32,000 nt of DNA from Pseudodesulfovibrio piezophilus C1TLV30 (GTDB taxonomy: Bacteria; Desulfobacterota; Desulfovibrionia; Desulfovibrionales; Desulfovibrionaceae). Of the stretch, positions 389 to 16,732 are shown in pieces. The stretch's first letter is position 1. The number at the start of each line of letters is the position of its first letter. Under the pieces are notes generated by a model that searched no databases, was not told the origin of the DNA, and saw nothing but the letters and a program-made list of their open reading frames with translations. A program made the translations under genes and the position numbers. Location of the stretch: positions 2,550,001 to 2,582,000 of the forward strand of contig NC_020409.1 in the NCBI RefSeq assembly GCF_000341895.1, written 5' to 3'.

Positions 389-1228
389 TTACAGACGGCT
401 GCCAGGGATGTAATCGCCGGGATAGAGTGTCTCAAAGCCTTTGCGAACTGTTTTTACATATTCTGGGTCACGCTTGTTCGGGTCGTGATATCGCGGATCC
501 TGCATCATTTCCCTGAGTTTTTCACGGGAGAGTTCCTCGCCCCAGCCTTGGCCCGGAGAGCGCATGCCGCTTTCCAGAACAAGTGGGGCAACCTTGGCAA
601 AGGCATTGATCACGGCGGCGTGATCTCCGGCGCGGGTGGAGTCGAGAGCATGAATCAGTTCCTTGCCGCCCAGTGCTTCGGCTGCCCGCAGAGCCGAGTC
701 GAGCATGTGCGGGGTTCGTCCGCGATGCACTGCCCGCAGGGATTCCAGTTCCCGTTCCCGAAGCTGGTTTGTCTCAGCCTGCATGGTATGGTGGGTGTCA
801 ATGACCAGCGGAAGGAACCATTGGTACAGTCCTGCCACCTGCTCGGCAGTGAGGCCCAGTCGGAACGCCGCATTCTTGAACCCGTTGATCATGTCCTCCT
901 GCATTTCATAGCCATCAGGCAGGTCGATGTCCGGCAAGGTATAGCCCTCAGGGTGATCGGGACGCCCCAGTGCGGAATAAAGGGTATTTCGCTGTTCGTC
1001 GTCTCCCTGACCCTCTGGAACACGAATATATCCTTCCGGGGTTTTGCCGAGCAGTCGTTGGGCGTGGACCAGGGCTTTGACGGCTTCATCCTTGGATGTA
1101 TAATTTTTCAGGGTAGGGTGTTCCCGTAAGGGAATTTCTTCTTCCCGGCCGTCCTCGCGGGCATTTTTGATGGTCCATTCCGCGGGCAGGGTCTGTTGCC
1201 AGTTCTGGGGGATGTTTTGGGTATTCAT
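389..1228 (-). CDS. Phage scaffolding-like protein (call based on position)
   Basis: 279-aa ORF with an AAGGAG RBS and an ATGA start/stop overlap with the upstream gene. The sequence is charged and looks helical. It sits directly after the portal and a small gene, where T7-like podoviruses place the scaffold (gp9). I recognise no diagnostic motif. Confidence 0.5.
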   Translation of the reverse strand: MNTQNIPQNWQQTLPAEWTIKNAREDGREEEIPLREHPTLKNYTSKDEAVKALVHAQRLLGKTPEGYIRVPEGQGDDEQRNTLYSALGRPDHPEGYTLPDIDLPDGYEMQEDMINGFKNAAFRLGLTAEQVAGLYQWFLPLVIDTHHTMQAETNQLRERELESLRAVHRGRTPHMLDSALRAAEALGGKELIHALDSTRAGDHAAVINAFAKVAPLVLESGMRSPGQGWGEELSREKLREMMQDPRYHDPNKRDPEYVKTVRKGFETLYPGDYIPGSRL

Positions 1229-1452
1229 TGGAGTATCTCCTTGTTGATGAAGTTGGTTTCGTCACACATGTGTTTGACATGCAGGACCAGGGATCGTCGG
1301 CCTTCGTTGAAGTCGGTGCGGCCGGGGTCAGTGGAGAAATTAGAGCGCAGGAAACCTGCCCTTTTCTCCAGATCATCCATGATGGCCTGTCCGTCAGGGG
1401 TGTCAAAGATGCGCCTGTATGCGCAATGCAGTTCCAGGGGATCAAACGCCAC
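1225..1452 (-). CDS. Small conserved phage protein between portal and scaffold (possibly Bbp19-like; uncertain)
   Basis: 75 aa with a GTG start preceded by GGAGGG. It overlaps the portal stop by 11 nt and the scaffold start by 4 nt (ATGA). The tight coupling argues that it is a real gene. Confidence 0.6.
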   Translation of the reverse strand: MAFDPLELHCAYRRIFDTPDGQAIMDDLEKRAGFLRSNFSTDPGRTDFNEGRRSLVLHVKHMCDETNFINKEILQ

Positions 1453-3232
1453 GGGGACCCTCCATCTTTTGTGTTTCTGCTGTGCTTTCCGAAAGGGGAC
1501 CAGTCACTTGTTCGGCCATGGAGGAGGGGGGGGATGGTCGCTCTGCTTGGGCAGGCATTTTCTTGGCGAGTTTTCCGGCTCCACCCATGAATAAGTTCCA
1601 GGCTTCGGTGAGTATGTTCGGCCTATCCGTGTATGCCTCGGACAGGGTCTTGGCGATGGCTGCCGCATCCGCGACGGTTTTGGCTGTCATGGCAGATCCT
1701 TGGGATTTGCTTTTTTGCTCCCTGGCTGCGGCAACATCGCCTTCCGGCTTGAGGTAGTCTGCCGGAATGCCGAACAGGTCTGCCACGTGCCGGGCCATGC
1801 GGTCCGTATTGAAGTTGTCCATGATGCCGAAGGCGTCGCCTGTTCCCACCAGTGGAGAGAGGTACTGCATGGCCTGAGGGAGTCCCTGGGCCTCATAGAG
1901 CTTCTGGGCATGGGTGATGGGTGAAGTATACCGCACCTCAATGTCTTCCGGGGTCAATCCTTCCGGGAATGGCGGCAAGGCTCCGGCCCGGAGCATGATC
2001 TTGAAGACGCGCTTGATCAGCGGGCTGAGGAATTCGGTCTGCAAGCGGCCCAGCACAGGACCGAGCACTCGCATCTTTTCCGTTTGGCGAATGACAGCTT
2101 CCGTGGCACTGACGGCAGGGCCTTCCGCCGCCAGTTGGTCACTCATGAAGATGCGCCGAATGGATTCCCTGCGCTGTTGCATCATCGATTCCGTGGCTGC
2201 GAGGTCCACACGCACCGGCAAAGCCTCAATACGGTCACTGGACCCGGCGCGGTAATAGGACAAGCCTCCGGGCCCGGACCGAACCGGACCGAGAAAACCG
2301 TCATCCGGGACCATCAATGGCGGATCAGACATTTTTTCGGCAGCCATGAGCGCCGTCCGGGCCATGGCATTGAGCACTCGCGTATCTGACAGGGCGGTCT
2401 GTCCCGGTCCTCGTCCGTATATCTCTCCCGCTGCCTTGGCCCAACGCGGGACCAGATAGGGCATTTCAAGATAGCCGGATTCTTCCAGGATATTCTGACT
2501 CGCCACCTCCATATAGATTGAAGCGTATGGGAAGTTTGCCGCACCAAGAGCGAATGGATCCCGATCGGTCCTCGGGAACACTGCGTGAAGCATCATGACC
2601 TTTTCGTCGGGCCTGTCTTCACTTTTTTTTCGCACTTCGTCCGAGCACCGTGCGCCCCACTCCTGGACCGCCTGTCGAGCTGTCAGTTCATATCTTCGGT
2701 AGACGGTATCCACTACGCCTCTTGCAGATTCAGAGACATAGACCTCGCCGAGAGGCCTGGTGGAAAAACGGGCAATGGTGCGAGGATCAGCCTCCACATA
2801 CATGACCGCTGTACCCATCAAAGCCACGTCCAGATAGAGTTCATGGACATTGGTCTGGAAGCAGGAATCCTCGGAATTGAACAAGGCGGCGATACGTTCG
2901 CGGGCCTGTTGCAGGAATTCGCGGATTGTCTGCTCATCTCCACGGCCAAAGTCTCGGGCGCGGATATCAAACCACGGCATGGCAGGATTGGTGAGTAATC
3001 CACCCAGAGCCGATGCCAATAACTCAAGGGAGTGCATGGGGGTCGAGTCGAAGATGTGTTCGTCTCGGATTTGCCCTCGGTTCAGTTGCGTTCCACCTGT
3101 CGCAACGAAACTGTTTTTGCGTGGCAGCATGTATTCGGTCAATTCCCGCCATGAATCGACCCATGGTTGGCGTGTTTCCTCCAGCCCCTGAAATCGGGTC
3201 AGGAGGGATTGCGCCAATTCTTTTTTGTCCAT
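1442..3232 (-). CDS. Portal protein, T7 gp8-like head-to-tail connector
   Basis: ~596 aa. Two segments parallel T7 gp8: ELLASALGGLLTNPAMPWFDIRA and TEAVIRQTEKMRVLGPVLGRLQTEFLSPLIKRVFKIMLRAGALPPFPEGL. In gp8 the corresponding stretches are NNLASKLMLALFP and TAEEIRYVASELEDTLGGVYSILSQELQLPLVRVLLKQL. The ORF track starts at 3238. I prefer the ATG at 3232 because it is 6 nt after the GGGAGA RBS. Confidence 0.9.
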   Translation of the reverse strand: MDKKELAQSLLTRFQGLEETRQPWVDSWRELTEYMLPRKNSFVATGGTQLNRGQIRDEHIFDSTPMHSLELLASALGGLLTNPAMPWFDIRARDFGRGDEQTIREFLQQARERIAALFNSEDSCFQTNVHELYLDVALMGTAVMYVEADPRTIARFSTRPLGEVYVSESARGVVDTVYRRYELTARQAVQEWGARCSDEVRKKSEDRPDEKVMMLHAVFPRTDRDPFALGAANFPYASIYMEVASQNILEESGYLEMPYLVPRWAKAAGEIYGRGPGQTALSDTRVLNAMARTALMAAEKMSDPPLMVPDDGFLGPVRSGPGGLSYYRAGSSDRIEALPVRVDLAATESMMQQRRESIRRIFMSDQLAAEGPAVSATEAVIRQTEKMRVLGPVLGRLQTEFLSPLIKRVFKIMLRAGALPPFPEGLTPEDIEVRYTSPITHAQKLYEAQGLPQAMQYLSPLVGTGDAFGIMDNFNTDRMARHVADLFGIPADYLKPEGDVAAAREQKSKSQGSAMTAKTVADAAAIAKTLSEAYTDRPNILTEAWNLFMGGAGKLAKKMPAQAERPSPPSSMAEQVTGPLSESTAETQKMEGPRGV

Positions 3233-3234
3233 TG

Positions 3235-3549
3235 TCATTCTCCCAGCTTGGTCTTGAGTTTGGAGACGCCGACTTCGGGGGAATTGGTCAAGCCTGCCGC
3301 GCCATTGCCCAGAGTACTTTTTGTTATTGCTTCGGCCTTGCGCCGTTTTTCGAGATCGCGGGCTTCCATGACCTTGTCTCGTTCTCGGCGGCGTTCCTCA
3401 GCCTCCTCCTGCCTTTGTTCTTCTTCGCGGGCTTTGCGCTCGGCAACGAGGTTGTTCGAGGGACTGGTTGCCCCGCCGGAGATAACCCCGCCGATAACAT
3501 TGCTGGCGACGCTAGAAAGCGTCTTCATCAGTATTTCAGAGCCTCCCAT
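3235..3549 (-). CDS. Hypothetical phage protein with a Gly/Ser-rich N-terminus and a charged coiled-coil core
   Basis: The track ORF is 3235..3594. The internal ATG at 3549 has a perfect AGGAGG RBS (3560-3565), whereas the 3594 start has none. The stop TGA overlaps the ATG at 3236-3238. Confidence 0.6.
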   Translation of the reverse strand: MGGSEILMKTLSSVASNVIGGVISGGATSPSNNLVAERKAREEEQRQEEAEERRRERDKVMEARDLEKRRKAEAITKSTLGNGAAGLTNSPEVGVSKLKTKLGE

Positions 3550-3583
3550 AGTTGATAGTCCTCCTGTTAAAGTGTTTTCAGGA

Positions 3584-3676
3584 GGATAACCCATGGTTTG
3601 GGAGCAGGGTGAGAACGGGCTTCAACGGGTGTGAACGGGCAGAAGAAGGGTGAAATCAGGTGTTGACAGGGTTTGT
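3584..3676 (-). promoter_or_regulatory. Conserved upstream regulatory module, copy A (head operon)
   Basis: Read on the plus strand, the module runs in this order:
- ggataacccatGGTTTG (GGTTTG at 3595-3600)
- GGGTGAGAACGGG (3607-3619)
- GGGTGTGAACGGG (3627-3639)
- GGGTGAAATCAGG (3648-3660)
- TGTTGACAGGGTTTGT (3661-3676)
It lies 35-127 nt upstream of the head-operon ATG at 3549. The architecture matches copies B and C. Confidence 0.6.
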
Positions 3677-3735: not shown

Positions 3736-3763
3736 TTGACGTTGTTTTTTTCGCGCGTATATT
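3736..3763 (+). promoter_or_regulatory. Sigma70-like promoter for the repeat-protein gene
   Basis: TTGACG (3736-3741), 16-nt spacer, TATATT (3758-3763). It lies ~75 nt upstream of the ATG at 3837. Confidence 0.55.
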
Positions 3764-3836
3764 AATTATATGCCAAATGACCCGGTAGGGTTTTTTTGCG
3801 GACCAGGGACGGTCGGCTTTGGCAGGGAGAAAGACA

Positions 3837-6023
3837 ATGTCTGCCCACGTTACCGATTTCATCATGGCCGGTCCTCCCGGTCATGTGACAGCAGGTCCCG
3901 CAGGGTCATTCAGGGCGAGCGATGCCGGTCGAGCCGTTATTGGCGAGCCGGGCTACGTGCCCATTGATACCACTCCGGCATATATTCCCATCGATACCAC
4001 TCTTCCAAGGATTCCCTATGCTCCGGGCATGGGAATTACCGTCACCGATTCTTCTGTGGGTGTTCATATCACAGGCGGGACCTCTGTAGGCGGTTTTGTG
4101 GAAGGCTCTACACAGGCTCCCATAGGCGGAGGTCATACATCGCCGACTCCGGTCAACGGAGGAGTGGTTAGTATGCCCAACTCCAGCAGTGCGAGTACTG
4201 CTACCGGTGTCGGCAGCACCGGGCTTGTGGGCGGGAATTCCGTTACCACGATCAATAATACGCAGGGTAATGTTTCCATAGGCGGGTCAACTTCCATTGT
4301 CGAATCTGGCAGGACCTCGGTGTCCCCGTCCGGCGGAAGCAGCTCCGGGACATTCGAGCGGGGTGGGTACAGTTCTCCTGAGGGGGGTGGACATGTTCCC
4401 ATTTCAACGGAGCACGGCAACGTTCCGGTTTCCCTTGCCGGTTCCGTTCCGATTACACCACATATCGGGTTCTCCATGCCGACTCTTTCCGGCATCACCC
4501 CCAGTACTCCCAGCGGGCGGGTGCAGGCTTTTCGTCACACAGCTCCGCACGGTTCGTATTTCGGACACACGCAACATTGGCCCAATGACGTCTTTCATCA
4601 CACTACGCATTCCTCCGGGTTTACACCCAAGTCCGTGCCACAGGCTCCATGGGTTCCCACTGTGGATGGCTATGAAGAGTCCAAGTTGCCGACGACTTCT
4701 TTTGATGATTCCATGGGACGTGGCAATCCCATTGACATGTCATCATCTTATTCCATGAATATCGATCAGACGCGGGATATCGATCAAAATCATCTGGTCA
4801 CCTACAACGAAACCGTGGACAGGGCGCTTGATCTTTCCATGAACTCCGTGGTGCAACGCAGCGATTCTGTTCTGAATCAGACTGATCTGGATAATTCTTC
4901 CACGACGAACCTGGATATGAGCACCACGCAGAACGTGGACAATGCCAATACGGTCAATCAAGTGACCAATCAGGATGCCATTTACAACACGACGCAGCAG
5001 AATGTGATGGAGCAGGATAATTCCAGAACCTTCAATAATACTGAAAATCGGGAATTGATCAACGAAAACCAGAATGTGCAGGTTCAGAATGTCGATGCGA
5101 CCCAGTCTGTCACGGAGAACAGGGTGGTTGATCAGAGCGTGTTGGACAATTCCACGGCCAACTATGTCAATCAGCGTGATGTCTCTGTCAGTTATGATAA
5201 TTCCGTGACCAGAGCCGAGGACCATTCCTCGTCCAATCAGGTTATCAATGAGAATACCTATAATGAAGTGGATAACTCCGTCAGCGAACAGAATACGTTG
5301 AGCCAAACAGTGCTTGAAAGCGAATATTCCTCCAATGTGTCCTTTAATGAGACGCATCTCAATCAGAACGACAACTCCACGGATATGGACACTGACATTG
5401 CGTTCGTCAGTCAGACCAATGACAACTCCACGGTCAATTATACATCGGATAATGACGTCAGCTTTGTGGAAAACAGGAACTTCAATGAAACTTCCACGGA
5501 AACCCATATCAACGAGAACGATAATTCGCGGGTTGTGGAACAGAGCACCAACTACAACTTCTCACAGAATGATAATTCCGTGACCAATATTGTGGATAAC
5601 AATTCCACAGTCATCAACGAAAACAGAGAGATGTCCGTCGAGTACAACACGTCTTCGGAAAATGTCTTCGATCAGTCTCGACACATAGATCAATCCACGG
5701 CGTTCAATTTCGTGGATCAGGACAACTCTGTCGTGCAATATGTCAATGACAACGACATAACCATGGTGGAGAACGATAACGTCACGCTGTCCTTCCCGGA
5801 AACACGTCTGCTTGAGATTGATAACTCAAATACAGTGGAAGTGAACAATACGTTCCAGAATCAGCACAATGACAATTCTCAGACCAATTATGTGGATGCG
5901 CGGGAAATGACGGTTCTTGATATCGATCAACCCAGCTACACTGTGGATCAATCAAGCAGCCTGGTCATGAATTTCCAGGCTCCGGAGCGGGCCGGCGGCG
6001 ATCTCATGGTCGGCAATGCCTGA
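3837..6023 (+). CDS. Low-complexity acidic Asn/Asp/Ser/Thr/Gln repeat protein, function unknown
   Basis: - The track ORF starts at a TTG (3819). The ATG at 3837 sits 6 nt after a GGGAGA RBS, giving 728 aa.
- I see no Sec signal peptide.
- The N-terminal third is Gly/Ser/Thr/Pro-rich, with a YVPIDTT/YIPIDTT tandem and a His-rich patch.
- The C-terminal ~430 aa contains about a dozen DNS tripeptides set in degenerate repeats.
- By my reading the protein has only 2 Lys and no Cys.
- The gene has its own promoter and a strong terminator. Confidence 0.8.
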   Translation: MSAHVTDFIMAGPPGHVTAGPAGSFRASDAGRAVIGEPGYVPIDTTPAYIPIDTTLPRIPYAPGMGITVTDSSVGVHITGGTSVGGFVEGSTQAPIGGGHTSPTPVNGGVVSMPNSSSASTATGVGSTGLVGGNSVTTINNTQGNVSIGGSTSIVESGRTSVSPSGGSSSGTFERGGYSSPEGGGHVPISTEHGNVPVSLAGSVPITPHIGFSMPTLSGITPSTPSGRVQAFRHTAPHGSYFGHTQHWPNDVFHHTTHSSGFTPKSVPQAPWVPTVDGYEESKLPTTSFDDSMGRGNPIDMSSSYSMNIDQTRDIDQNHLVTYNETVDRALDLSMNSVVQRSDSVLNQTDLDNSSTTNLDMSTTQNVDNANTVNQVTNQDAIYNTTQQNVMEQDNSRTFNNTENRELINENQNVQVQNVDATQSVTENRVVDQSVLDNSTANYVNQRDVSVSYDNSVTRAEDHSSSNQVINENTYNEVDNSVSEQNTLSQTVLESEYSSNVSFNETHLNQNDNSTDMDTDIAFVSQTNDNSTVNYTSDNDVSFVENRNFNETSTETHINENDNSRVVEQSTNYNFSQNDNSVTNIVDNNSTVINENREMSVEYNTSSENVFDQSRHIDQSTAFNFVDQDNSVVQYVNDNDITMVENDNVTLSFPETRLLEIDNSNTVEVNNTFQNQHNDNSQTNYVDAREMTVLDIDQPSYTVDQSSSLVMNFQAPERAGGDLMVGNA
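5349..5831 (+). repeat. Degenerate ~150-nt (50-aa) intragenic repeats
   Basis: The in-frame anchors ETHLNQNDNS (from 5349), ETHINENDNS (from 5499) and ETRLLEIDNS (from 5799) are spaced 150 and 300 nt apart. Related blocks (DNSTVNYTSDNDVSFVEN and DNSVVQYVNDNDITMVEN) recur between them. Confidence 0.6.
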
Positions 6024-6054: not shown

Positions 6055-6083
6055 AGGACACCTGTCAATTCAGGTGTCCTTTT
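6055..6083 (+). terminator. Rho-independent terminator of the repeat-protein gene
   Basis: GGACACCTG (6055-6063), loop TCAATT, CAGGTGTCC (6070-6078), then TTTTT (6079-6083). It starts 32 nt after the stop codon. Confidence 0.85.
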
Positions 6084-6130
6084 TCATTCGCAGAGTCGAG
6101 ATGATCGTGCATTAATCCCGGCTTTCATCC

Positions 6131-6496
6131 TCAGGTTGGGTCAACGTCCATGGACATGGTCTGGAGGACGCACTGGTCAGTGAAACCGTAGATCCGGGCA
6201 AAACGGAAAAGATTGGGATTTAATCCCTCTGCATGACTGATGCGAATGCCGGTGATGCGTTTTTTCCCCAACCGTCTGCTTTCTTCTTTGAGCCAGTGAA
6301 CGTCGCCATGGATATTTCGCCTGATTTGTGGTCCCCATCGGATGAGTGAGACGTGGAGTTCCAGCGCGTCCTCATGTTCCCGAATGGCGGAATAGCCATA
6401 GGGCAAATCATTGTGATGCAGTTCGAGCCATCGGTAGTTTTCTTGTGTGAAATGAGCCAGTTCCCTGGGCTTTTTTTTCAGTTCACGAACGCTCAT
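6131..6496 (-). CDS. Hypothetical protein translationally coupled to TerL (faint GNAT-like C-terminal pattern)
   Basis: The track ORF 6131..6616 overlaps terL. The ATG at 6496 follows a GGAGG RBS and overlaps the terL stop by 14 nt, giving 121 aa. The segment RRLGKKRITGIRISHAEGLNPNLFRFARIYGF loosely resembles an acetyltransferase motif A/B region, which is weak evidence. Confidence 0.55.
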   Translation of the reverse strand: MSVRELKKKPRELAHFTQENYRWLELHHNDLPYGYSAIREHEDALELHVSLIRWGPQIRRNIHGDVHWLKEESRRLGKKRITGIRISHAEGLNPNLFRFARIYGFTDQCVLQTMSMDVDPT

Positions 6497-7769
6497 GGAG
6501 CCTCCCGAATGGATTGTATGTGTTTTCGGTTCTGGGTGGGCGTGGTCCTGCCCCCGGCTGCCGGAATCCGACGGCGAAATAGCGGAAGGCATCGACGGCA
6601 TGGCTGGTCCAATCATGAACCGGTCTCACGCCGAAATCATTCATGCGTTCGTTGAATGAGCGGCGGTAATGACGGAGGGACTCCAGCCCTGCTTCACACC
6701 GAGTCATGTCAAACCAGCAGGATGGCAGGAGGGTCCGGACGGCATTGATGCCATCCTGAATGGGGATATTCGGAGCGATGTCAAAGCGGATTCCCAGCCC
6801 TCGTGCCACTTCGAGTCGGGATTTTCCCGTGCCCAGTTCGCGGACGCGGATATCGTGGGGGGCTATATGGATGCCGTATTTATATGCCTTGTCATCAAGG
6901 ATTTTTGCATAATGATCCAGTCCTTCCCCACAGGCCTCATAATAATCAATGATCGCGTAGGTTCCTCCCGGTCGTGCCTGGACGAACCAGATGGATGTGG
7001 AGTCACTCATGCCGAGGTCCCAGGCTGTGTGAACAGGTAATGAGGGGTCGTGGGAGACCTCTGTGATACGGCCTTCCTTATCTGCTTCGCCCATAAGGTT
7101 GCCAAAGTACGCGCCGCGAATGGCTGCCGAGAATGAACATTCGAATTCTTGTTCGTATTCCTCCGGGGACATTTCCCTTGCGGCTGCGGCCAATTCGTCC
7201 TGGTCGATGATGTTGGTGTCCGATGCGCGGTACATGGCCGCAAACCAGCTCGGGTCGCGCCGGGCTTCTTCCCATATTTCGTATAAGGCGTTTTTCCCTC
7301 GGGGAGTGCCGATGAAGATTGCCCATCCCTTTCTATCTGAAAGGGCCGGGCGGATAACCTCGGTCCATATCCGTTTGGGCATCTGTGCCACTTCATCAAA
7401 AAGAACGCCGTCGAGATAAATTCCGCGCAGGGAATCCGGATTTTCAGCCCCGAAGAGGCGGATACGCGAACCATTTTTGAAATCTGCGCGAAGTTCTGTC
7501 TCGTGAAATTTTGCGAGACATTCTTCGGTCCCAACGCCGCAATATCGTTTGAGTTCATCCCAAACGACAGTCTTGGCCTGTTTATAGAGAGGGGCGATGT
7601 AAGCTCCGCGCCAATCCGGTCGGTCGGTTTCACTCGCTGCCCGGATGAGTTGGTTGATGGAGAGGGCGGTCTTGCCGAATCGTCGATGGCAGACCAACAC
7701 CGAAAATCGCGCCAGTCCGGTTTCGATTTCAGCCTGATGTTTTCGGGGGATATAAAGATTATGACTCAT
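6483..7769 (-). CDS. terL: Terminase large subunit
   Basis: 428 aa. Walker A is HRRFGKT. Walker B is LDGVLFDEV. Nuclease-type acidic motifs are present (HTAWDLGMSDSTSIWF, APHD, HDWTSHAVDAFRY). This is the typical TerL ATPase plus RNaseH-like nuclease layout. Confidence 0.9.
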   Translation of the reverse strand: MSHNLYIPRKHQAEIETGLARFSVLVCHRRFGKTALSINQLIRAASETDRPDWRGAYIAPLYKQAKTVVWDELKRYCGVGTEECLAKFHETELRADFKNGSRIRLFGAENPDSLRGIYLDGVLFDEVAQMPKRIWTEVIRPALSDRKGWAIFIGTPRGKNALYEIWEEARRDPSWFAAMYRASDTNIIDQDELAAAAREMSPEEYEQEFECSFSAAIRGAYFGNLMGEADKEGRITEVSHDPSLPVHTAWDLGMSDSTSIWFVQARPGGTYAIIDYYEACGEGLDHYAKILDDKAYKYGIHIAPHDIRVRELGTGKSRLEVARGLGIRFDIAPNIPIQDGINAVRTLLPSCWFDMTRCEAGLESLRHYRRSFNERMNDFGVRPVHDWTSHAVDAFRYFAVGFRQPGAGPRPPRTENTYNPFGRLHERS

Positions 7770-7823
7770 TGCTTAAAGATCCTTGTTGTTGACGGACACG
7801 ACCTGCGAGCGTATTTCCAAGCG

Positions 7824-8960
7824 ATGCGTCGTCTTGTCCTGATTCTTTTTTGTCTTCCCTTGTTGTTGATGGGATGTTTTGGTTCGCCCAGACCTCTGGG
7901 GACGAGTGCAGGGCTGACTGAGCAGGAAATCGCGCTGCAGCGGCGGGAAGCTTCGGCTTCTGATGCGCTGGCCAAAGCGCTTCAACTCTATCACAATGAA
8001 GAATTTCTTGATGTCGAAACAGCCAAGGAATACCTGGATCAGGCCATTCAGCTTGATCCGACTCTTGTGCCTGCGAGGCAGTATCGGGCCATGCTTCTGT
8101 TGGGTCAGAATCGATTGGATGAAGCTTTGATCGATGCCGAGGAAGTTCTGAAGGTAAAACCGGATCATACCAAAGCGCAATTTACAGTGGGCTTTATCCA
8201 GTACAACAAAGGTGAATACCGGGCCGCTATCAGGGCTTTTTCCAAGGTTGTGAAGCTGGATCGGAATATTTCCGAAGCGTATGCCCTGCGCGGAGCCTCC
8301 TACAGCCGCCTCGGACATTTTCAGGACGCCATCAAAGACTTCAGCCGGACACTCGCCATGAATCCCGCGCATAGGGAAGCGTACTACAACCGGGGTCTCG
8401 CCAATATGCAGCTGGGCAATCTCGTCCGCGCTATTTATGATCTGACCCAAGCTCTGACTCTCGATTCCCAATCCATTGAAACGTTGACGGCGCGGGCCGC
8501 TGCCTATAGCAAGCTCGGTCAGTTTGACAAGGCTGTGGAGGATTTTCAGAGGGCTGTCGATTTGGCTCCTTCTGACAATATGCTCCATGCTCTTCTTGCC
8601 GATACGCAAGCCTCGAATGGGAATTATGAGGCCGCAAAGCAGTCTGCGGACAAGGCCGCTCTGCTCGCTGAAGCTCTTGGCGATGACGAGCTTGTGCGAG
8701 TGTACAAAGGGATGGCTGCCGATTTTGCAGCCAAGGCTCTCTCGCCTCCTGTTTCGCCTCGCTCGAAAACAGGAATCCCCGATAAAAAGGGAGTCCCTGT
8801 TCCGGGACAATCCCTTCTCCCGACGGATGGAGTGAAGGGTAGCCCTGAAGCCTTGGCTGGGAACACATCTCGGAGAGCCATCCAGACGGATTCTGATGCC
8901 GTCTCCGCTGTGGGGTCGAAGTCGAAATTCCGGTCGGCTCCGGGAGCGGAAACGGATTGA
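7824..8960 (+). CDS. TPR-repeat lipoprotein
   Basis: The track ORF starts at 7503 and overlaps terL. The ATG at 7824 gives MRRLVLILFCLPLLLMGC, a signal peptide with an L-L-M-G-C lipobox. Multiple 34-aa TPR units follow (for example AYALRGASYSRLGHFQDAIKDFSRTLAMNPAHREAYYNRG). The C-terminus is Pro/Ser-rich. A TTGACG-17-TATTTC promoter lies at 7790-7818. Confidence 0.85.
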   Translation: MRRLVLILFCLPLLLMGCFGSPRPLGTSAGLTEQEIALQRREASASDALAKALQLYHNEEFLDVETAKEYLDQAIQLDPTLVPARQYRAMLLLGQNRLDEALIDAEEVLKVKPDHTKAQFTVGFIQYNKGEYRAAIRAFSKVVKLDRNISEAYALRGASYSRLGHFQDAIKDFSRTLAMNPAHREAYYNRGLANMQLGNLVRAIYDLTQALTLDSQSIETLTARAAAYSKLGQFDKAVEDFQRAVDLAPSDNMLHALLADTQASNGNYEAAKQSADKAALLAEALGDDELVRVYKGMAADFAAKALSPPVSPRSKTGIPDKKGVPVPGQSLLPTDGVKGSPEALAGNTSRRAIQTDSDAVSAVGSKSKFRSAPGAETD

Positions 8961-8964
8961 GGGA

Positions 8965-9177
8965 TTATTTGAGTATTTCATAAATGACCCTTGCACCGAC
9001 TCCGCCGACAGTGGCCATGCAGCCCCAGACCATCTTCTCCAATGTCGAAATCTTGACGTGATGACTGGCACACCTTCGGGCCAGATTGATTTCCCGGATG
9101 TCTTCCTGAATCGTCTTGACCCGTTCATCTATTCGGATCAGCAGGTCCTGCAGATCTTCCCTTTCCATAGCTGTCAT
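8965..9177 (-). CDS. Small coiled-coil protein with a C-terminal TM helix (XhlA-like architecture; lysis accessory?)
   Basis: 70 aa with an ATGA overlap onto the upstream holin-like gene. The N-terminus is a coiled coil (EREDLQDLLIRIDERVKTIQEDIREIN). The C-terminus is hydrophobic (MVWGCMATVGGVGARVIYEIL). Confidence 0.5.
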   Translation of the reverse strand: MTAMEREDLQDLLIRIDERVKTIQEDIREINLARRCASHHVKISTLEKMVWGCMATVGGVGARVIYEILK

Positions 9178-9581
9178 TTGGGTGCTCCGAAGGCGTCCTT
9201 GATTCCCCTGAGCGTGCTGGGCAGGTAATCGCCTATCTTTTTAACGCCCAGCACGGCTGCCACGATCCAGAAAGTGACCTGAAGAAACCAATCCGGTAGG
9301 TTCTCCCACGCGGCAATGACATGGGCGGCTTGTTCCGGGGCTACCCCGGACCATATGAAGAAGCCGATCCAGGCGAAGAACAGCACGTCGTCCTTCCAAC
9401 CCGCGTTTTCCAATTGTTTCATTTCCCATTCGTGGTTGAATTCCTGATCGCTTTTTGCCAGGCGCATGCGATTTTCCATGACAGTCTGTTTCAACACCTG
9501 TTTTTGTTTCATGTGGCCGGTAATACCTTCCACGACAGTGGTCAGCAGTCCGGCCACGGCTCCGATGATTGGTATGGGCAT
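9174..9581 (-). CDS. Putative holin (architecture resembles the 3TM / GTA-type holin family)
   Basis: 135 aa with an AAGGAGA RBS. The N-terminus is hydrophobic (PIPIIGAVAGLLTTVV). An amphipathic, charged helix follows. Two TM segments come last (VLFFAWIGFFIWSGV and WFLQVTFWIVAAVLGV). The family assignment comes from architecture and memory only. Confidence 0.5.
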   Translation of the reverse strand: MPIPIIGAVAGLLTTVVEGITGHMKQKQVLKQTVMENRMRLAKSDQEFNHEWEMKQLENAGWKDDVLFFAWIGFFIWSGVAPEQAAHVIAAWENLPDWFLQVTFWIVAAVLGVKKIGDYLPSTLRGIKDAFGAPK

Positions 9582-9616
9582 GGCGTCTCTCCTTGTTTTT
9601 CCTCAAGCACGCCGCA

Positions 9617-9709
9617 GTGTATCCCCGGTTTTTGGGCCAGGACACCAGCGGGTGTAGAAGGGATGAAATGGGGTGAAAACGGATGAAAAAAGACGGTTGA
9701 CACGGATTG
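9617..9709 (-). promoter_or_regulatory. Conserved upstream regulatory module, copy C (lysis-like operon)
   Basis: Read on the plus strand, the module runs in this order:
- gtgtatccccGGTTTT (GGTTTT at 9627-9632)
- GGGTGTAGAAGGG (9650-9662)
- GGGATGAAATGGG (9660-9672)
- GGGTGAAAACGG (9671-9682)
- GGATGAAAAAAG (9681-9692)
- GGTTGACACGGATTG (9695-9709)
The repeats are phased ~10 nt apart. The module lies 36-128 nt upstream of the ATG at 9581. Confidence 0.55.
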
Positions 9710-9732
9710 CCTCAAAGGGTGATGTCTCCTTC

Positions 9733-10767
9733 ATGCAAACCACGGAACCATCTCTTGCGACCAGACTGTCCGAGCCGTTGAATATCGGTGGAAAAAAGGT
9801 TGCCAATCGTCTCTGGCTAGCCCCCATGGCCGGACTGGGGCATGTGGCCTATCGTGAAGTTCTGGAAGAGTATGGTGGGTGTGGATTGATGTTCACGGAG
9901 ATGTGCTCGGCCAAGGCTGTGCCCATGGAAAATCGGCGTGTCTCTCCTGTTTTTCGCTGGCGGGACGAAGAACTCCCCAAGCTGGTTTGTCAGATCGTGG
10001 GAGCGACTCCGGATGAGATGATTCCGGCCGCACGGCGTGTGGAAGCAGAGGGCTTTTTCGGTATTGATATCAACATGGGATGTTCGGTTCCGGGGATCGT
10101 CAAGCGTCATGCGGGAGCCGCTCTGCTCAAGTCTCCTGAGAAAGCTCTCGCTGTGATTGAAGCTGTCCGCACCGCAGTGACCCTGCCTCTTTTCGTCAAG
10201 TTCAGGACTGGCTGGATCCCGGATATTCGTCCAGCAGTCGCCCTTGCCAGACAGTTCGAATCAGCCGGAGTGGACTGCCTTGTTTTTCATCCTCGTGTGG
10301 CTCCGGATAAGCGGACCCGCCCAGCCGTTCTCGACCATATCCGTTCGATCAAGGATGCTGTATCGATCCCGGTTATTGGCAATGGAGACGTCGTTACGAG
10401 GGAGGAATGCGCCCATATGCTTGAATCGACCGGATGTGACGGTATCTCCGTCGGACGCATGGCCATGGCCAGGCCATGGCTTTTTGCCGAATGGACTCGC
10501 GGCTATCAGCCTTCTGAAGCAGAGTTCGGTCAGTATGCCATTCGGTTGGCCGATGCCCTGGAAGCTCGGTATGATCCTGTCAGGGCTTTGAAACGTTACA
10601 AATTATTTACCGTTTATTTTGCAGCGAATTTTACCTTTGGTCACAGTCTGCAATCAAAATTCCTGGCAGCCAAGTCCATGGCTCAGATACGGGCGGTTGC
10701 CCGACAGCATGTCCGACCCGACATGCAATTATCCGGCAGACCGAACATGAATCTTTACAACACGTAG
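9733..10767 (+). CDS. dus: tRNA-dihydrouridine synthase (Dus family)
   Basis: Dus-family motifs are present: LAPMAGLGHVAYREV, GLMFTEM, GIDINMGCSVP, VKFRTGW and IPVIGNGDV. The track start GTG at 9673 runs through the repeat array. The ATG at 9733 gives a typical Dus N-terminus. Confidence 0.9.
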   Translation: MQTTEPSLATRLSEPLNIGGKKVANRLWLAPMAGLGHVAYREVLEEYGGCGLMFTEMCSAKAVPMENRRVSPVFRWRDEELPKLVCQIVGATPDEMIPAARRVEAEGFFGIDINMGCSVPGIVKRHAGAALLKSPEKALAVIEAVRTAVTLPLFVKFRTGWIPDIRPAVALARQFESAGVDCLVFHPRVAPDKRTRPAVLDHIRSIKDAVSIPVIGNGDVVTREECAHMLESTGCDGISVGRMAMARPWLFAEWTRGYQPSEAEFGQYAIRLADALEARYDPVRALKRYKLFTVYFAANFTFGHSLQSKFLAAKSMAQIRAVARQHVRPDMQLSGRPNMNLYNT

Positions 10768-12989: not shown

Positions 12990-13427
12990 CTATTCTGTCT
13001 CAGGTTGTTCCGGCCATTCTATGAAAGAGGGAAATCCTTCCTGTTGGGGGATATCTCTCAATGCCTGCCTGTAGCTTTGCCATAGAACCATGGCTTCTGT
13101 GTCCAAGCACGAATCGACCAGTTGGGTCCAATCTGACTGTGCCAGCAATCTGTCCCTTTTTTTGCGCGTCAATACGGCTTTATCTGCTGATTGAGCCTCT
13201 TCATCTGTGGTCGTGGCAAGAATTTCTTCCCGGTAGATGAGGTCTTCCCCTTTGACCCATCTCGTTTGATAGGTGGTGTAGGGTTTTCGCGTAATCGGAA
13301 AAGCCTCGTTGTATCCGGCCTCATCCCATTCCGTCCGATTCAGGTCACCGAATCGGCGAGTGTATCCTCGGAAAGTGACCACGGCAGGTGGTGTTGTTTT
13401 GAAGTGTCCATCGTGATAGCGAAACAT
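12990..13427 (-). CDS. Tail fibre assembly chaperone
   Basis: The ATG at 13427 follows a GGAG RBS (the track ORF starts at 13508), giving 145 aa. The C-terminal segment KRDRLLAQSDWTQLVDSCLDTEAMVLWQSYRQALRDIPQQEGFPSFIEWPEQP matches the conserved tail-fibre-chaperone C-terminus (SDW...W..YRQ.LRD.P...GFP..I.WP). Confidence 0.7.
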   Translation of the reverse strand: MFRYHDGHFKTTPPAVVTFRGYTRRFGDLNRTEWDEAGYNEAFPITRKPYTTYQTRWVKGEDLIYREEILATTTDEEAQSADKAVLTRKKRDRLLAQSDWTQLVDSCLDTEAMVLWQSYRQALRDIPQQEGFPSFIEWPEQPETE

Positions 13428-13440
13428 ATTAATCTCCTTT

Positions 13441-15738
13441 TTAAAATGCGTTGCTGTATTTGGTTGATTCGAGCATGGCAAGGCCGACCATAAGGTTCCC
13501 TTCGCCATTGACCTGAGGATTGGTGCCGGTGATTTTTATGCCCTGACTGGAAAAGAGTGTTGAAATGTTGCTTTCCGTTGTCTCAACATCGGTCGAGTCA
13601 GGGAGAAGATAACTCGCAACAATATTTTTTTCATTTCTTGCAGAGTCGAAAAGGAAGTGGTGTCCAACCTCATCTGTGTTCTTTAATGCAAACAGTGCCC
13701 GTGGTTTGCCTCCCAAATGGACAAATGGACCATCTTCAGAGCCGTTGCCGACGTAGCTGAAAGCTTGGAAAATCGCAGAATCGGCAAAAAGATAGGCCAT
13801 ATGTTTTTGGCCGAGACCATTGACTCCAGGGTTACTTCCAACGGTGAAATGAGTGCTTGTGGGTGGAGTGTCATTCCAGATATCGCTTTTTTCTTGAGCG
13901 TTTTCCGTAGAATTGAGGAGGAGGTGTTTTTTTTCACCCAGAGCCGAATGGTAGAGTGCCCATCCCAGAGTGCCCGTTTCAAGATTTTTGACGATCATGA
14001 AAGAGGGAGGCGCTTGGAGTGCATGGGAGATATCTCTGCCGGAGGAGCCGTCACCTGTGTATTCGATCAGTTCAAATCCTTGATACGGAGCGGATTTGAG
14101 GCAGAGATCAAGAAAGGAGTTACCTGACTTGTTAATGAAGCTTGCATACCCTAAGTTGTAGCCGTCATCATTGAAAGCGGTGAGCGAATCCGTAAAGTAT
14201 GATTGGGCGGATGAAGAGTTGGTCCTGAGGTATTTGGTTGTTCCTTGGCACCGATCGAATAATCCCCAGGAATCAACAGCCCATCTGCCTTTGATGTAGA
14301 CAAAATCAGGGGCGAATTCCAATGAAGACACGGTTGTGTCGCCGCCCGTGCCGATCCGAGTCGTGATATCGAAGACTGTCGAAGATCGAAGCAGGGTAGG
14401 CTCGGGATTGGTCTTGATACACAGCGGTTTGAATCCTGTCGGAGGAGAGAAAGCAAAGATTGTTCCGCCGGAGTTCAAGGTGATTTTCTGGTCCATTGCC
14501 CCGGTGGTCACGAATGGGAGTACTCTCTGTGGCAAGCCAGTTATCATCGGGTTTACATGGTTTATCGGGTCTCCATCCTCCAACCATGAACCATTGCGCC
14601 CTATCCACATGTTATTTCCTTTGAGGGCGAATTGGAAAATGTCACCAGCTGAAAAAAATGGTGGATTCACCCATTCCGAAAACACTCCATCGGCATAATA
14701 CCCTGCCGCATCACACGAAAAATGTCCGGCCTTGTTTGCCATGTTGGTCGAAGGGCACCGGGATTCAATGGCTCCCATTGAAAGAGAAGCCGTTGAAGCA
14801 AGTGTCTCAAGGGTGCATTCCCAATATAATCCGCGCTCTGTTGCCATGGGAATGTCACCCATGGCCATGGTAAAAGAATCGTTGTTTGAAGAAATAGTTC
14901 TGTTTCCATTGGAAAAAATCAATTCATTTGTCCTGTCTAGGGAAAGGAGTCTGTTGAACGTACAATGATTGTTTGTCGGGGTATCTCCGCATTGTGCGGG
15001 ATCTCCGATTACCGTCCAGTGGTTTTCCTGTGCACTGTCATGACCGAGATTGGCTGCATCTGAAAATCGCAGATGAAAACCATTTTGCCCCAGAGTGAGA
15101 TCTTTTGATTTTCGGGGAATCCACAGCCCGGTTATAATGGATGAGTATTCTCCGAACTGATGTATGCCCTGGGGTATTCCATCCACAAAAATTATATCTG
15201 AAGCGTAGCCGTTAATCGGTGTCGTTATTAAGTGAAGTTTTCTTCCTATGTACATCTGGTAATTGATGTCGTTAACTGATGTCACTGTGTTCTGAGCGGC
15301 CATTGTGCTCGTTTCCAGTGGTACCAGGCGGTTCCCGTTGTAATAGACTCTGACTCTGTCAAGGGCGGCAGGTGCCGTTGTGTCCACCATGACTGCAAGA
15401 TGGTACCATGCGGTGGGGTCGGAAAAGACGTTCCAATCAAAAGAATATTTGAAAAGGGTGGTTCCGGCTGAGTTCGCTTGAAAAACAGAGAATTGGTTGT
15501 CATTGAGGAATATATGGAAACGAGGTTTCAAACTTGCGCTACCTGCCGTAAAGAAGCAGTGCCCAGCCGCTTCGCATGTCGTTCCCTTGAACCATCCGCT
15601 GAAGGTAAAGGTTTGCGTATTGCCTGTGGTTTGAGGAGTCCGGGCAAGATACTGTCCTGTGGATAAAAGTGCCGAATGTGACAATTCTCTTGGAAAAACA
15701 GGGATTATTTCATGATTATGTTCTTTCGGAGTGAGCAT
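13441..15738 (-). CDS. Putative distal tail fibre / receptor-binding protein with LamG-like and SPRY-like jelly-roll domains
   Basis: The ATG at 15738 sits after GGAGGCGTAAC (the track ORF starts at 15849 and overlaps the upstream gene), giving 765 aa. A LamG/concanavalin-like pattern is present (FTFSGWFKG...WYHLAVMVD...VRVYYNGNRLV). A SPRY-like pattern is present (GLYWECTLE...GDIFQFALKGNNMWIGRNGSW). Confidence 0.65.
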   Translation of the reverse strand: MLTPKEHNHEIIPVFPRELSHSALLSTGQYLARTPQTTGNTQTFTFSGWFKGTTCEAAGHCFFTAGSASLKPRFHIFLNDNQFSVFQANSAGTTLFKYSFDWNVFSDPTAWYHLAVMVDTTAPAALDRVRVYYNGNRLVPLETSTMAAQNTVTSVNDINYQMYIGRKLHLITTPINGYASDIIFVDGIPQGIHQFGEYSSIITGLWIPRKSKDLTLGQNGFHLRFSDAANLGHDSAQENHWTVIGDPAQCGDTPTNNHCTFNRLLSLDRTNELIFSNGNRTISSNNDSFTMAMGDIPMATERGLYWECTLETLASTASLSMGAIESRCPSTNMANKAGHFSCDAAGYYADGVFSEWVNPPFFSAGDIFQFALKGNNMWIGRNGSWLEDGDPINHVNPMITGLPQRVLPFVTTGAMDQKITLNSGGTIFAFSPPTGFKPLCIKTNPEPTLLRSSTVFDITTRIGTGGDTTVSSLEFAPDFVYIKGRWAVDSWGLFDRCQGTTKYLRTNSSSAQSYFTDSLTAFNDDGYNLGYASFINKSGNSFLDLCLKSAPYQGFELIEYTGDGSSGRDISHALQAPPSFMIVKNLETGTLGWALYHSALGEKKHLLLNSTENAQEKSDIWNDTPPTSTHFTVGSNPGVNGLGQKHMAYLFADSAIFQAFSYVGNGSEDGPFVHLGGKPRALFALKNTDEVGHHFLFDSARNEKNIVASYLLPDSTDVETTESNISTLFSSQGIKITGTNPQVNGEGNLMVGLAMLESTKYSNAF

Positions 15739-15739
15739 G

Positions 15740-16732
15740 TTACGCCTCCATGTTCTGCACCGAAAGGATGCTTTTTCGGTTATTGTATTGTTCAACAACA
15801 ATTCTGATTTCCTCAGCACTTGTGCTCGGCAACGGTAGCTTTCCGTCATTGTTGTAGCTTTCAGCGAGGTTCAAGGTATAGCCGGCAGGGTAGACATGGA
15901 AAATATAGGTTCCATCAAAAGGTAAAAGAACGTCGCTGAAGAAGCTTGGAGCTTCCAGAGTCCAGAGGATATGATTGCGTTCCACTTCCAGGGTGAGGAG
16001 ATCGACCCCTGAATAAAGTTGGGCTTCGTCGCCGAAAACCGTTTGTAGGATATCCGGGATATCTGCTTTGAGAATGGTGGTATCAGCAGGTTCAGCATCA
16101 AGAAGAGCCAGAGCGTCGAGGGAGGATTGGGCTGTTGCCATAGCCCGACCTGTTGCGCCAAAACCAAGATTACTGAGCGCCTCTTCGATATCCCTGCCCC
16201 CTGTACCTCCTTCACCGATCGAGAGCGGGATTCCGACCATACCTATATCTCCGGCCTGCTTGTTGATCAGGTTGTCACCGGATTCATTCCACGCGATAAG
16301 ACGCCCGGGGTCTGGTTCAGGCAGTTCAACACCACTCACGGCAGATGAAACACGAAAGGTGATCGTTCGATCCAATCGTTCGGAAAGTGTCTGGCAGATC
16401 ATCGTCAGTTTATCCAGAGCCGCTTCATGTGTGGCTGCGGGAAAGGCGTCGTTTTCTACATAATCAACTTCCTGGACAATGGACGGGTTGCGTCTGATGA
16501 CAAGATGTTCTCCTTTTGCCGGAGCCGAAGTCATGGTGCAGATCCCGCCTGTATGATGTCCAGCCCCGGAAAGTTGATAATCTGTACTGATGGTTTGAAC
16601 TGTTTCGGTGTCCGGAGATGATAGGACGACTTCGAGATCATTATTTTCGAGGAAGAGAAAAGGCACTGCAAACAGTGTTGTTGAGCCATTCCCCATATAT
16701 ATGACCCGTGATTGGGTGGATGAGATTGTCAT
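15740..16732 (-). CDS. Tail fibre protein with a T7 gp17-like N-terminal (tail-attachment) domain
   Basis: 330 aa with an AGGAG RBS. The N-terminus is VIYMGNGSTTLFAVPFLFLENNDLEVVL...TDYQL...GEHLVIRRNPSIVQEVDYVENDAFPAATHEAALDKL. It parallels T7 gp17 (LTYQLDGSNRDFNIPFEYL...TDYRF...IELRRVT...DFTDGSILRAYDLN). Confidence 0.75.
   Translation of the reverse strand: MTISSTQSRVIYMGNGSTTLFAVPFLFLENNDLEVVLSSPDTETVQTISTDYQLSGAGHHTGGICTMTSAPAKGEHLVIRRNPSIVQEVDYVENDAFPAATHEAALDKLTMICQTLSERLDRTITFRVSSAVSGVELPEPDPGRLIAWNESGDNLINKQAGDIGMVGIPLSIGEGGTGGRDIEEALSNLGFGATGRAMATAQSSLDALALLDAEPADTTILKADIPDILQTVFGDEAQLYSGVDLLTLEVERNHILWTLEAPSFFSDVLLPFDGTYIFHVYPAGYTLNLAESYNNDGKLPLPSTSAEEIRIVVEQYNNRKSILSVQNMEA

Follow-up and report, generated by a model that had tools for sequence, protein, structure and literature searches.

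What does a long repeat-protein gene do when it stands, on the opposite strand, between the portal and terminase modules of a phage-like gene cluster? The question is raised by a 32,000-nucleotide stretch of Pseudodesulfovibrio piezophilus C1TLV30 (contig NC_020409.1 of assembly GCF_000341895.1, positions 2,550,001 to 2,582,000; hereafter the window), in which a coding sequence of an orphan family (3837..6023, plus strand) encodes a protein of 728 amino acids (aa) plus stop, with no internal stops. A first-pass annotation had described the product as an Asn/Asp/Ser/Thr repeat protein and had proposed that it might serve as a particle decoration or fibre, as a cation-binding surface protein exported by a non-Sec route, or as a payload. 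We find that the family conserves its two short ends and that the Gly-rich spacer, the His/Trp core, and the repeats between them form an expandable insert. The gene persists and moves as an autonomous cassette. A flagellum-associated role would be the most likely single assignment, judged from sequence and gene neighbourhood.

Conserved ends and an expandable middle

The N-terminal module of the window protein (aa 1-64, 3837..4028; this and the other parts of the gene lie on the plus strand) opens with MSxxVTDFI(V/M)AGP, followed by xGPxGxxx octapeptides and two VPIDT..IPY motifs. The pattern across the family is M-x-x-x-T-D-(F/N)-I-V-A-G-P, then the octapeptides, then VPIDT..IPY, over about 45-65 aa. 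Residues T6, D7, I9, A11, G15, P21, and A27 are invariant in alignments of 17 diverse members, and the module is 61-70 % identical even where the remaining protein is <30 % identical. The C-terminal tail (aa about 701-728, 5937..6020) ends in ...NFQAPERAGGDLMVGNA and has the pattern F-x-A-P-E-R-x-G-G-D plus hydrophobic residues, over about 20 aa. F713, A715, P716, E717, R718, G720, G721, and N727 are invariant in alignment A1, and G721 is nearly invariant in the 42-sequence alignments.

About 640 aa of the window protein lie between the two ends and are hypervariable. They begin with a Gly/Ser/Thr-rich low-complexity spacer (aa about 65-180, 4029..4376), delimited by alignment and composition, whose length differs among homologues. 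VP(I/V)xT motifs and a His/Trp core follow (aa about 181-300, 4377..4736; HGxYFGHTQHWPND...APWVP). The family form of this core is HGxxxxHTQxWP...WxP, with G227, G239, H244, Q246, W248, P249, W272, and P274 as invariant columns in A1; the core is absent from mini-homologues. The acidic Asn/Asp/Ser/Thr region of beta-strand repeats comes last (aa about 301-700, 4737..5936), with a unit of 8.38 aa, a super-repeat of 50 aa, and 12 DNS turns. Its copy number differs among homologues through 50-250-aa indels (A1), and Tandem Repeats Finder detected no DNA-level tandem repeat in the gene.

Full-length members span 415 to 903 aa, and mini-members of 65-167 aa consist of the two ends alone, without repeats. 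The repeat region, to which the first-pass annotation had drawn attention, is thus an accessory, dispensable insert, and what the family conserves is its ends. A 76-aa copy in Pseudodesulfovibrio occupies the same synteny as long copies: ACS901, p152, the gene, p124, the large terminase gene (TerL), a tetratricopeptide repeat (TPR) gene, p70, p135, and CBS.

Family distribution

We found no match for the window protein or its family in Pfam, PHROGs, NCBIfam, PADLOC, or the sequences of the PDB, which agrees with the earlier failure to recognise a family. A word-indexed search of 5.8 billion proteins identified six homologues, and an exhaustive profile search of 1.84 billion representatives gave 43 matches, one of which is a compositional false positive. 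Scans of genomes, viromes, and metagenomes added about 45 further loci. Every named host belongs to the Desulfovibrionaceae (Pseudodesulfovibrio mercurii, P. karagichevae, P. sp. JC047, Desulfovibrio caledoniensis, Maridesulfovibrio frigidus, and metagenome-assembled genomes), and all copies are annotated as hypothetical.

No homologue was detected in 50,697 phage genomes. IMG/VR yielded one match, on a 6-kb contig where an aldehyde dehydrogenase follows the scaffold gene, which identifies the contig as a chromosomal remnant. Literature searches on the locus tag and on Desulfovibrio CsrA/FliW returned nothing useful. The family is undescribed, and the kinds to which it may belong (moron, hypervariable exported repeat protein) are already known. 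The new elements are a family logic based on the ends alone, the conservation of the leader, and an association both with flagellar genes and with a domesticated podovirus set.

Composition and selection

We favour ATG 3837 over TTG 3819 as the start codon, as all homologues open with M/V-S-x-x-V-T-D-F. The 728-aa translation contains 2 Lys and 0 Cys, as the first-pass annotation had counted, with N 11.5 %, S 12.8 %, and T 10.7 %; in the C-terminal 428 aa, N reaches 17.5 % and D+E 16.5 %. Across the window's 19 other open reading frames (ORFs), K averages 3.6 %, C 1.0 %, and N 3.7 %. Against this background the composition stands out as specific to this gene and is not typical of the genome, a concern that the first-pass annotation had raised against its own reading. 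The gene uses 84 Asn codons (AAT+AAC) and 2 Lys codons (AAA+AAG). Each Asn codon is one third-position transversion from a Lys codon, which argues that Lys is avoided by selection and not through base composition. Cys is absent from 11/11 homologues examined, Lys makes up 0.3-2 % compared with the 3.6 % background, and net charge ranges from -19 to -64. The window protein has no signal peptide and no transmembrane segment.

G+C content is 0.455 over 5001-6000, within the repeat region, compared with ~0.54 in the flanks, and AT skew becomes positive there; both follow from the heavy use of AAT/AAC. An antisense ORF of 254 aa (4743-5507, minus strand), rich in Ile/Val/Leu/His, lies within the gene and is most likely a by-product of the sense-strand Asn/Asp/Ser/Thr codons, not a gene.

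Among three related Pseudodesulfovibrio-type loci, the ratio of nonsynonymous to synonymous substitution rates (dN/dS) of the gene is 0.26-0.43 between close homologues with unsaturated dS. Across the repeat region, dN/dS stays <1 in all 100-codon windows of the unsaturated pairs. A value >1 occurs in one window only, in the Gly-rich spacer and in one pairwise comparison. By these ratios, the repeat protein is functional and fast-evolving. A decaying pseudogene is ruled out by an ORF that is intact in >40 loci and by dN/dS <1.

Periodicity and fold of the repeats

The hydrophobic residues of the window protein recur with periods of 2.0 (z = 12.6) and 8.38 residues (z = 8.1). A period of 8.36-8.39 is kept in seven other long homologues that are 40-50 % identical, and period 2 is also conserved. 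A non-integer period shared at this level of identity points to a structural constraint and suggests that the repeats are short beta-strands of ~5 residues joined by turns of ~3 residues in a solenoid. The 50-aa periodicity reported in the first-pass annotation was recovered as autocorrelation at lags 50 and 100 (z about 7 relative to shuffles), and its estimate of about a dozen DNS tripeptides proved accurate, with 12 counted.

From residue 479 on, the distance of each DNS from the one at residue 437 is an odd multiple of the 8.38-residue unit, which places the DNS positions in one phase of a two-unit coil. The region probably forms a two-sided beta-solenoid with two strands per coil, ~16.8 aa per coil, and three coils per 50-aa super-repeat, with the DNS turns stacked on one edge. 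Such an Asp-Asn-Ser ladder on the solenoid edge could bind cations. The earlier annotation had left the choice between an acidic beta-solenoid and a disordered chain. The conserved periods of 2 and 8.38 residues fit the solenoid better, while AlphaFold2 returned no confident fold (see below). A profile comparison with the PDB gave only low-complexity artefacts, such as huntingtin polyQ and the Gly-Ser linkers of single-chain antibody fragments.

An autonomous cassette with a structured leader

The promoter, ribosome-binding site, and strong terminator of the first-pass annotation all hold, and the gene is a self-contained transcription unit. A sigma70-type promoter was located by sequence scan (TTGACG at 3736-3741, a 16-nt spacer, TATATT at 3758-3763), GGGAGA stands at 3825-3830, and an intrinsic terminator occupies 6055..6085, with a G+C-rich stem of 10-11 bp, a 6-nt loop, and TTTTC (-24 kcal/mol, z = -4.6). 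A simple terminator scan did not list this hairpin. A promoter of the form TTGAC(G/T)-N16-17-(C)GTATAxT precedes the start by ~100 nt at nearly all loci, in phage, flagellar, and ordinary host contexts alike. The mini-gene of M. frigidus likewise comes with a promoter of its own and with an analogous 13-bp terminator. The mobile unit thus comprises a near-consensus sigma70 promoter, the ORF, and usually a terminator, with a structured leader in closer relatives.

The 60-nt leader (3772..3830, within a conserved stretch at 3764-3836) contains three helices, the closing helix P1 (3772-3777/3818-3823), the G+C-rich hairpin P2 (3779-3792), and the hairpin P3 (3798-3817), and the Shine-Dalgarno sequence comes immediately after them (AGGGAGA at 3824-3830 here; (A/G)GGGAG across leaders). 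RNAfold gives it -26.8 kcal/mol (z = -2.2). We assessed the helices by per-sequence folds, duplex checks, and explicit pair counts, as RNAalifold on a MAFFT alignment lost them through register shifts. Twelve of 16 distinct homologous leaders fold alone into the same three-helix shape. The P1 duplex is present in 16/16, as GCCAAA/UUUGGC here and as GCCGG/UCGGC, CCAGAA/UUCUGG, or CCGGAA/UUCCGG elsewhere. Pair counts show 85 % of cells paired, compared with 23-42 % in slid controls, and compensatory changes occur in 5/13 pairs. The leader matches no family in Rfam.

The six-base loop of P3, A(G/U)GGA(A/C) (3805-3810), is invariant in the 16 distinct leaders. The leader has two A-N-GGA sites, one in this hairpin loop and one at the Shine-Dalgarno sequence, which is the classical binding arrangement of CsrA/RsmA and resembles the leaders of CsrA-controlled flagellins. 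We regard the two sites as a putative CsrA binding pair.

Flagellar and other host neighbourhoods

We identified the gene beside three different flagellar clusters in separate lineages. It follows motAB-fliLNOPQ at locus L002. At L012 and seven similar loci, fliQPONL-uvrA is followed by the gene, a methyltransferase, and an OmpH-like gene. In M. frigidus and its relatives, a mini-gene lies directly upstream of flgF-G-A-H-I-J-N-K. At two further loci (L017 and L021) the gene adjoins flgE, an OmpH-like gene, and a glycosyltransferase. By a rough estimate, ~1 % of genes would lie that close by chance. Three flagellar clusters are far above this expectation, and the link of the gene to flagella is probably real as a neighbourhood signal, the context classes being perhaps not fully independent.

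In the window, flgE (22371-24011), an OmpH-like gene, and a glycosyltransferase gene lie 16-20 kb from the repeat-protein gene. The presence of these three genes here and directly beside it at L017, together with the methyltransferase and OmpH-like genes that come after it in other genera, suggests an old chromosomal neighbourhood. The window FlgE has 546 aa and 0 Cys, the OmpH-like gene is at about 24298-24870 (plus strand), and the GT4 glycosyltransferase is at 25372-26508. Mini-homologues of 90-107 aa (L052, L048, L046, L047) lie between rimP-nusA-infB and flgFGAHIJNK; that of L052 (7938-8533) has 107 aa.

We also identified the gene in other host contexts. At L050 the order is ArgS, a SPOR protein, the gene, a Sel1-repeat protein, a methyltransferase, and OmpH, and at L024 the gene lies between DUF2959 and hisG. 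The longest homologues (903 aa; L025 12419-22271, L027 7300-11929) are convergent to RTX-repeat proteins of 1534 and 1680 aa and follow GGDEF/EAL signalling genes and an amino-acid permease. The first-pass annotation had held that widespread homologues at unrelated loci, with an established function, would speak against its phage-linked reading. Homologues do occur at flagellar and other host loci, and none of them has an established function.

Phage-derived surroundings

The T7-type portal and TerL that the first-pass annotation placed on either side of the gene are both present on the opposite strand. A phage-derived head block (389..3594, minus strand) contains a scaffold-like gene (389-1228), a Bbp19-like gene (1225-1452), the portal (1442-3238; Pfam Head-tail_con, E 4e-166), and a gene for a 119-aa protein (3235-3594). 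It ends at the scaffold-like gene, left of which lie SNF, RlmN, Zip, and other host genes (L009). A packaging block (6131..9581, minus strand) contains genes for a protein of ~120-161 aa (6131-6616), TerL (6483-7769), and proteins of 70 aa (8965-9177) and 135 aa (9174-9581). Within it, on the plus strand, lies a TPR lipoprotein gene that probably starts at 7824 and ends at 8960. The TPR genes of the element encode a lipobox, of which LLLMGC is one example. The packaging block is syntenic in at least 10 loci, in either orientation relative to the repeat-protein gene.

Read along the minus strand, the order is 135 aa, 70 aa, TerL, ~120-161 aa, the repeat-protein gene, 119 aa, portal, Bbp19-like, and scaffold-like. 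The closest sequenced relatives are Pelagibacter podophages, whose portal is 44-45 % identical. In Pelagibacter phage HTVC010P, TerL, two small genes, portal, Bbp19-like, scaffold, and major capsid protein follow one another on one strand without an insert. The repeat-protein gene is thus a moron-like insertion, and so is the TPR lipoprotein gene.

A second phage-derived block (12990-19336, minus strand) lies past three host genes (Dus, cyclase, EamA). It encodes a tail-fibre assembly protein of 172 aa, an 802-aa fibre or structural protein (DUF7483 + Laminin_G_3), a 158-aa ORF, a 330-aa ORF with the N-terminal domain of the T7 tail fibre (15740-16732, minus strand), and a 698-aa tail protein (phrog_376, E = 2e-181). 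No capsid gene or small terminase gene (TerS) was detected in the window or in the 10 kb to its left (42 kb in all). With host genes left of the scaffold gene and without capsid or TerS, the element is not an intact prophage. The head block and the second block look like a scattered podovirus gene set without a local capsid gene and TerS.

Pseudodesulfovibrio species share a synteny of a glycosyltransferase, ACS901, the FlxA-like p152, the gene, the TerL block, and CBS, and neither a portal nor a capsid gene is nearby; the TerL block is syntenic at L001, L005, L020, and about 10 other loci. In this synteny dS is the same for phage-derived and host genes (about 0.2-0.4; individual p70 pairs reach 0.68). 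TerL, p70, and p135 have dN/dS of 0.06-0.22, like the host genes ACS901 and CBS, and TerL alone 0.09-0.17. The block's protein of ~120-161 aa evolves faster than these three. A vertically inherited remnant with packaging genes under purifying selection points to domestication and not simple decay.

The scattered set may be a multi-locus gene-transfer-agent-like element, possibly related to the Dd1 particles of D. desulfuricans. Its vertical inheritance and purifying selection, found across three Pseudodesulfovibrio-type loci, are those expected of a gene-transfer agent. Of the expected gene set, the window supplies portal, scaffold, TerL, tail protein, fibre, and chaperone, and no capsid gene or TerS was detected in the 42 kb covered. 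Gene-transfer agents of Desulfovibrio and a putative TerS, Ddes_0720, have been mentioned before (PMC11841831, PMC6854486); the putative Dd1 region of D. desulfuricans ATCC 27774 lies around Ddes_0720.

Morons are independent transcription units between conserved phage genes, as defined for lambdoid phages. The repeat-protein gene resembles them in lying between TerL plus a small gene and a small gene plus the portal (genes that are adjacent in related phages), in having its own promoter and terminator, in its opposite strand, and in its lower G+C content. It differs in that the surrounding phage-derived genes form a vertically inherited remnant with host-like dS, not an active prophage, with no active phage carrier among the phage genomes searched. 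Unlike morons, the cassette also occurs outside phage contexts, and the insertion is ancient, in the same position in lineages whose copies are <35 % identical. At this locus, then, the gene is a moron-like cassette between TerL and portal of an old, vertically inherited, partly domesticated podovirus-type set, and not a canonical virion gene.

Possible functions

The account that we tentatively favour, with less than even confidence, is that of a non-Sec-exported protein with a displayed, diversifying middle. The protein would leave the cytoplasm without a Sec signal, and its two ends would anchor it within or upon a larger assembly associated with the envelope. The middle, acidic and solenoid-like, would be displayed and evolve fast. 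The likeliest route would be the flagellar type III pathway, to which the gene neighbourhood points most. We infer this export, docking, and flagellar involvement from the same material as the fold and the CsrA control proposed above.

The family shares several features with flagellins and other flagellar type III substrates: conserved termini around a middle of anything from nothing to hundreds of residues, no Cys, no Sec signal, a composition rich in Asn/Ser/Thr/Gln, and a position beside three flagellar clusters. It differs from flagellar proteins in lacking Flagellin_N/C, Flg_bb_rod, Flg_bbr_C, and Flg_hook domains. In contrast to flagellin, its termini are Gly/Pro octapeptides and not heptad helices, its promoter is sigma70-like, and it shares no operon with flagellar genes.

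Several observations weigh against flagellar export and display. First, we detected no demonstrable signal for any secretion system and no linked secretion genes in the window. Flg_bb_rod, Flagellin, and Flg_hook had no Pfam match in 20/20 members at E up to 1; the FlgE of the window is detected normally. The promoter is neither of the sigma28 nor of the sigma54 type. Second, phage-derived neighbours are the commonest context, and several contexts lack both phage and flagellar genes. The mini-gene and flgF of M. frigidus are neighbours and not an operon, with a separate terminator and promoter; flgF has its own sigma54-type promoter (TGGCCT-N5-TTGCA). Neither M. frigidus nor the 76-aa copy (L056) has the CsrA-like leader. 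Finally, the AlphaFold2 prediction that the first-pass annotation had proposed as a check gave no confident fold in two runs, with mean pLDDT of 28.6 (7 aligned sequences) and 41.3 (42 aligned sequences). Only residues about 240-290, in the His/Trp core, reach pLDDT 70-76. With the 42-sequence alignment there is almost no secondary structure, and a largely disordered chain is possible.

A second account, unlikely in our judgement but a serious competitor, makes the protein a component of a phage-derived particle, gene-transfer-agent-like or from a defective podovirus. Its ends would bind capsid, portal, or tail, and its middle would be a head fibre, a decoration, or an internal or ejected protein. 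The gene lies between portal and TerL blocks in at least four divergent lineages, 28-50 % identical among them (the window, L014, L026, and L011; L004 and L049, with capsid gene and TerS; L054, a 103-aa mini-member; L034 and L038), and at L029 it adjoins a capsid gene. Purifying selection and vertical inheritance mark the phage genes around it, which are hence probably still in use, and phage fibres usually combine a conserved N-terminus with a distal part that varies and evolves fast. An ~8-residue period, alternating hydrophobics, the 8-residue xGPxGxxx repeat of the N-terminal module, and phage-derived surroundings are also shared with the triple beta-helix of T4 gp5/VgrG (VxGxxxxx) and with fibre shafts. 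The C-terminal GGD(L/I)xVG may loosely resemble encapsulin cargo-loading peptides; no shell gene is present, and the window lacks a capsid gene.

Against a particle component stand the gene's opposite strand and its own sigma70 promoter and terminator, the same promoter recurring in phage-free copies. The gene is absent from sequenced phages and from the real relatives of the head module, and at least five context classes have no phage gene within 10 kb. In Pseudodesulfovibrio it lies beside TerL with neither portal nor capsid nearby, and the window and the 10 kb to its left have no capsid gene. The block at 12990-19336 already supplies a T7-type fibre, an assembly chaperone, and a tail protein. 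The period is 8.38 and not 8.0 as in gp5/VgrG, with no Gp5_C or fibre match in Pfam or PHROG. As far as the fibre role proposed in the first-pass annotation means a tail fibre, its place is already taken. We reject a tail-fibre identity, since a T7-type fibre set exists at 12990-16732; the Phage_T7_tail adaptor domain is absent from the repeat protein and present in the ORF at 15740-16732. Of the functional link to the phage-like cluster that the first-pass annotation considered plausible, the recurrent co-location with portal and TerL in several divergent lineages stands, but phage-free contexts and the lack of homologues in sequenced phages speak against it.

A third account, quite unlikely, is an intracellular and largely disordered protein, a regulator or scaffold that binds partners by its ends, with the middle as a neutral low-complexity expansion. 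The low AlphaFold2 scores, the lack of a signal peptide or transmembrane segment, a wholly deletable middle, and a dN/dS above that of neighbouring genes are consistent with it. The size and flagellar position of the mini-members resemble disordered regulators such as FlgM. However, neutral low complexity would lose both the 8.36-8.39 period and the strong period 2, which are kept at 40-50 % identity, and the repeat-region windows all have dN/dS <1. Cys is wholly absent and Lys is avoided about ten-fold despite the 84 Asn codons, which argues for selection on the middle too. A Cys-free, acidic, Ser/Thr/Asn-rich composition is also more typical of exported proteins.

A more specific and distinctly improbable version of our favoured display account would join its two neighbourhoods. 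The two end modules would plug an expandable beta-solenoid into an envelope machine tied to both the flagellum and the domesticated podovirus-type particle, possibly the genetically uncharacterised gene-transfer agent of the Dd1 type, and the family would define a modular display protein of a new kind. The protein might then be, for example, a flagellum-binding or flagellum-exported fibre for contact between particle and cell, under a CsrA-type leader.

The family shares with RTX beta-rolls short repeats, 8.4 aa long compared with 9 in RTX, that pair into coils (~16.8 aa, near the 18 aa of the RTX roll), Asp-containing turns, an acidic Cys-free composition with repeats near the C-terminus, and a conserved tail in which D is followed by hydrophobic residues, and the 903-aa homologues adjoin large RTX proteins. 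Unlike RTX proteins, as the first-pass annotation had noted, it has no GGxGxD nonapeptide, HemolysinCabind being absent from the window protein and from 20/20 members, and Gly makes up 0.7 % of the repeats. It is thus very improbable that the protein is an RTX-like, calcium-binding beta-roll adhesin secreted by a type I system through a C-terminal signal: no ABC transporter, membrane fusion protein, or TolC gene lies beside the gene in annotated neighbourhoods, the adjoining RTX proteins have no C-terminal motif in common with it, conservation is highest at the N-terminus, unexpectedly for a substrate recognised at its C-terminus, and mini-members lack repeats altogether. An unrelated RND efflux pair lies ~3.5 kb from the gene at L003.

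PE_PGRS-type proteins, in which a conserved N-terminal export module precedes expandable Gly-rich repeats, offer a similar plan: a short conserved N-terminal module, then low-complexity repeats whose copy number varies, and little Lys or Cys. They differ in sequence, taxon, and secretion system, and our family also has a conserved C-terminal tail. We do not file the family under flagellar proteins, RTX proteins, T7 fibres, or gp5, as it lacks the sequence features that define each of them.

The family, unnamed in databases, follows an unusual evolutionary grammar of fixed ends around a disposable, repeat-expanding middle free of Cys and nearly free of Lys. Its co-location with flagellar clusters and with a podovirus-derived set under purifying selection raises a testable question, namely where the protein goes and where its ends dock. 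P. mercurii ND132, which carries the gene as DND132_2082, is genetically tractable. A fast-evolving surface protein in a dead prophage would be of modest interest; a link to a gene-transfer-agent-like particle or to the flagellum would be of greater interest. The evolution of TerL and its neighbours like host genes across Pseudodesulfovibrio is possibly the more valuable lead, as it touches the long-standing question of which genes encode the gene-transfer-agent-like particles of sulfate reducers.

Variation among the surrounding genes

The TerL block (p135, p70, TPR, TerL, p161, with CBS in some loci) is inverted relative to the gene when L001 and L020 are compared with L005, L008, L022, L037, and the window, and at L017 the portal block lies on the gene's own strand. 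The breakpoints of these repeated inversions adjoin the repeat-protein gene.

The TPR lipoprotein gene is a constant part of the phage-derived element (window, L001, L003, L004, L049, L054, L056) and, like the repeat-protein gene, always lies opposite the strand of the structural genes. A gene for a secreted TPR or Sel1 (lipo)protein occurs near the repeat-protein gene both in phage contexts and at L050, and its product may be a periplasmic partner of the repeat protein.

One or two acidic FlxA-like proteins (pI about 4.1-4.2) are encoded directly upstream of the gene in Pseudodesulfovibrio (L001, L005, L006, L008, L009, L056). FlxA of Escherichia coli is the product of a prophage gene that belongs to the flagellar regulon, and we count these proteins among the flagellar neighbours of the family. 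The FlxA-like proteins carry the motif GDTV(T/S)ISEE(G/A)(R/K)AL and a C-terminal coiled coil, and those of L001 are a paralogous pair (8707-9165 and 9323-9757).

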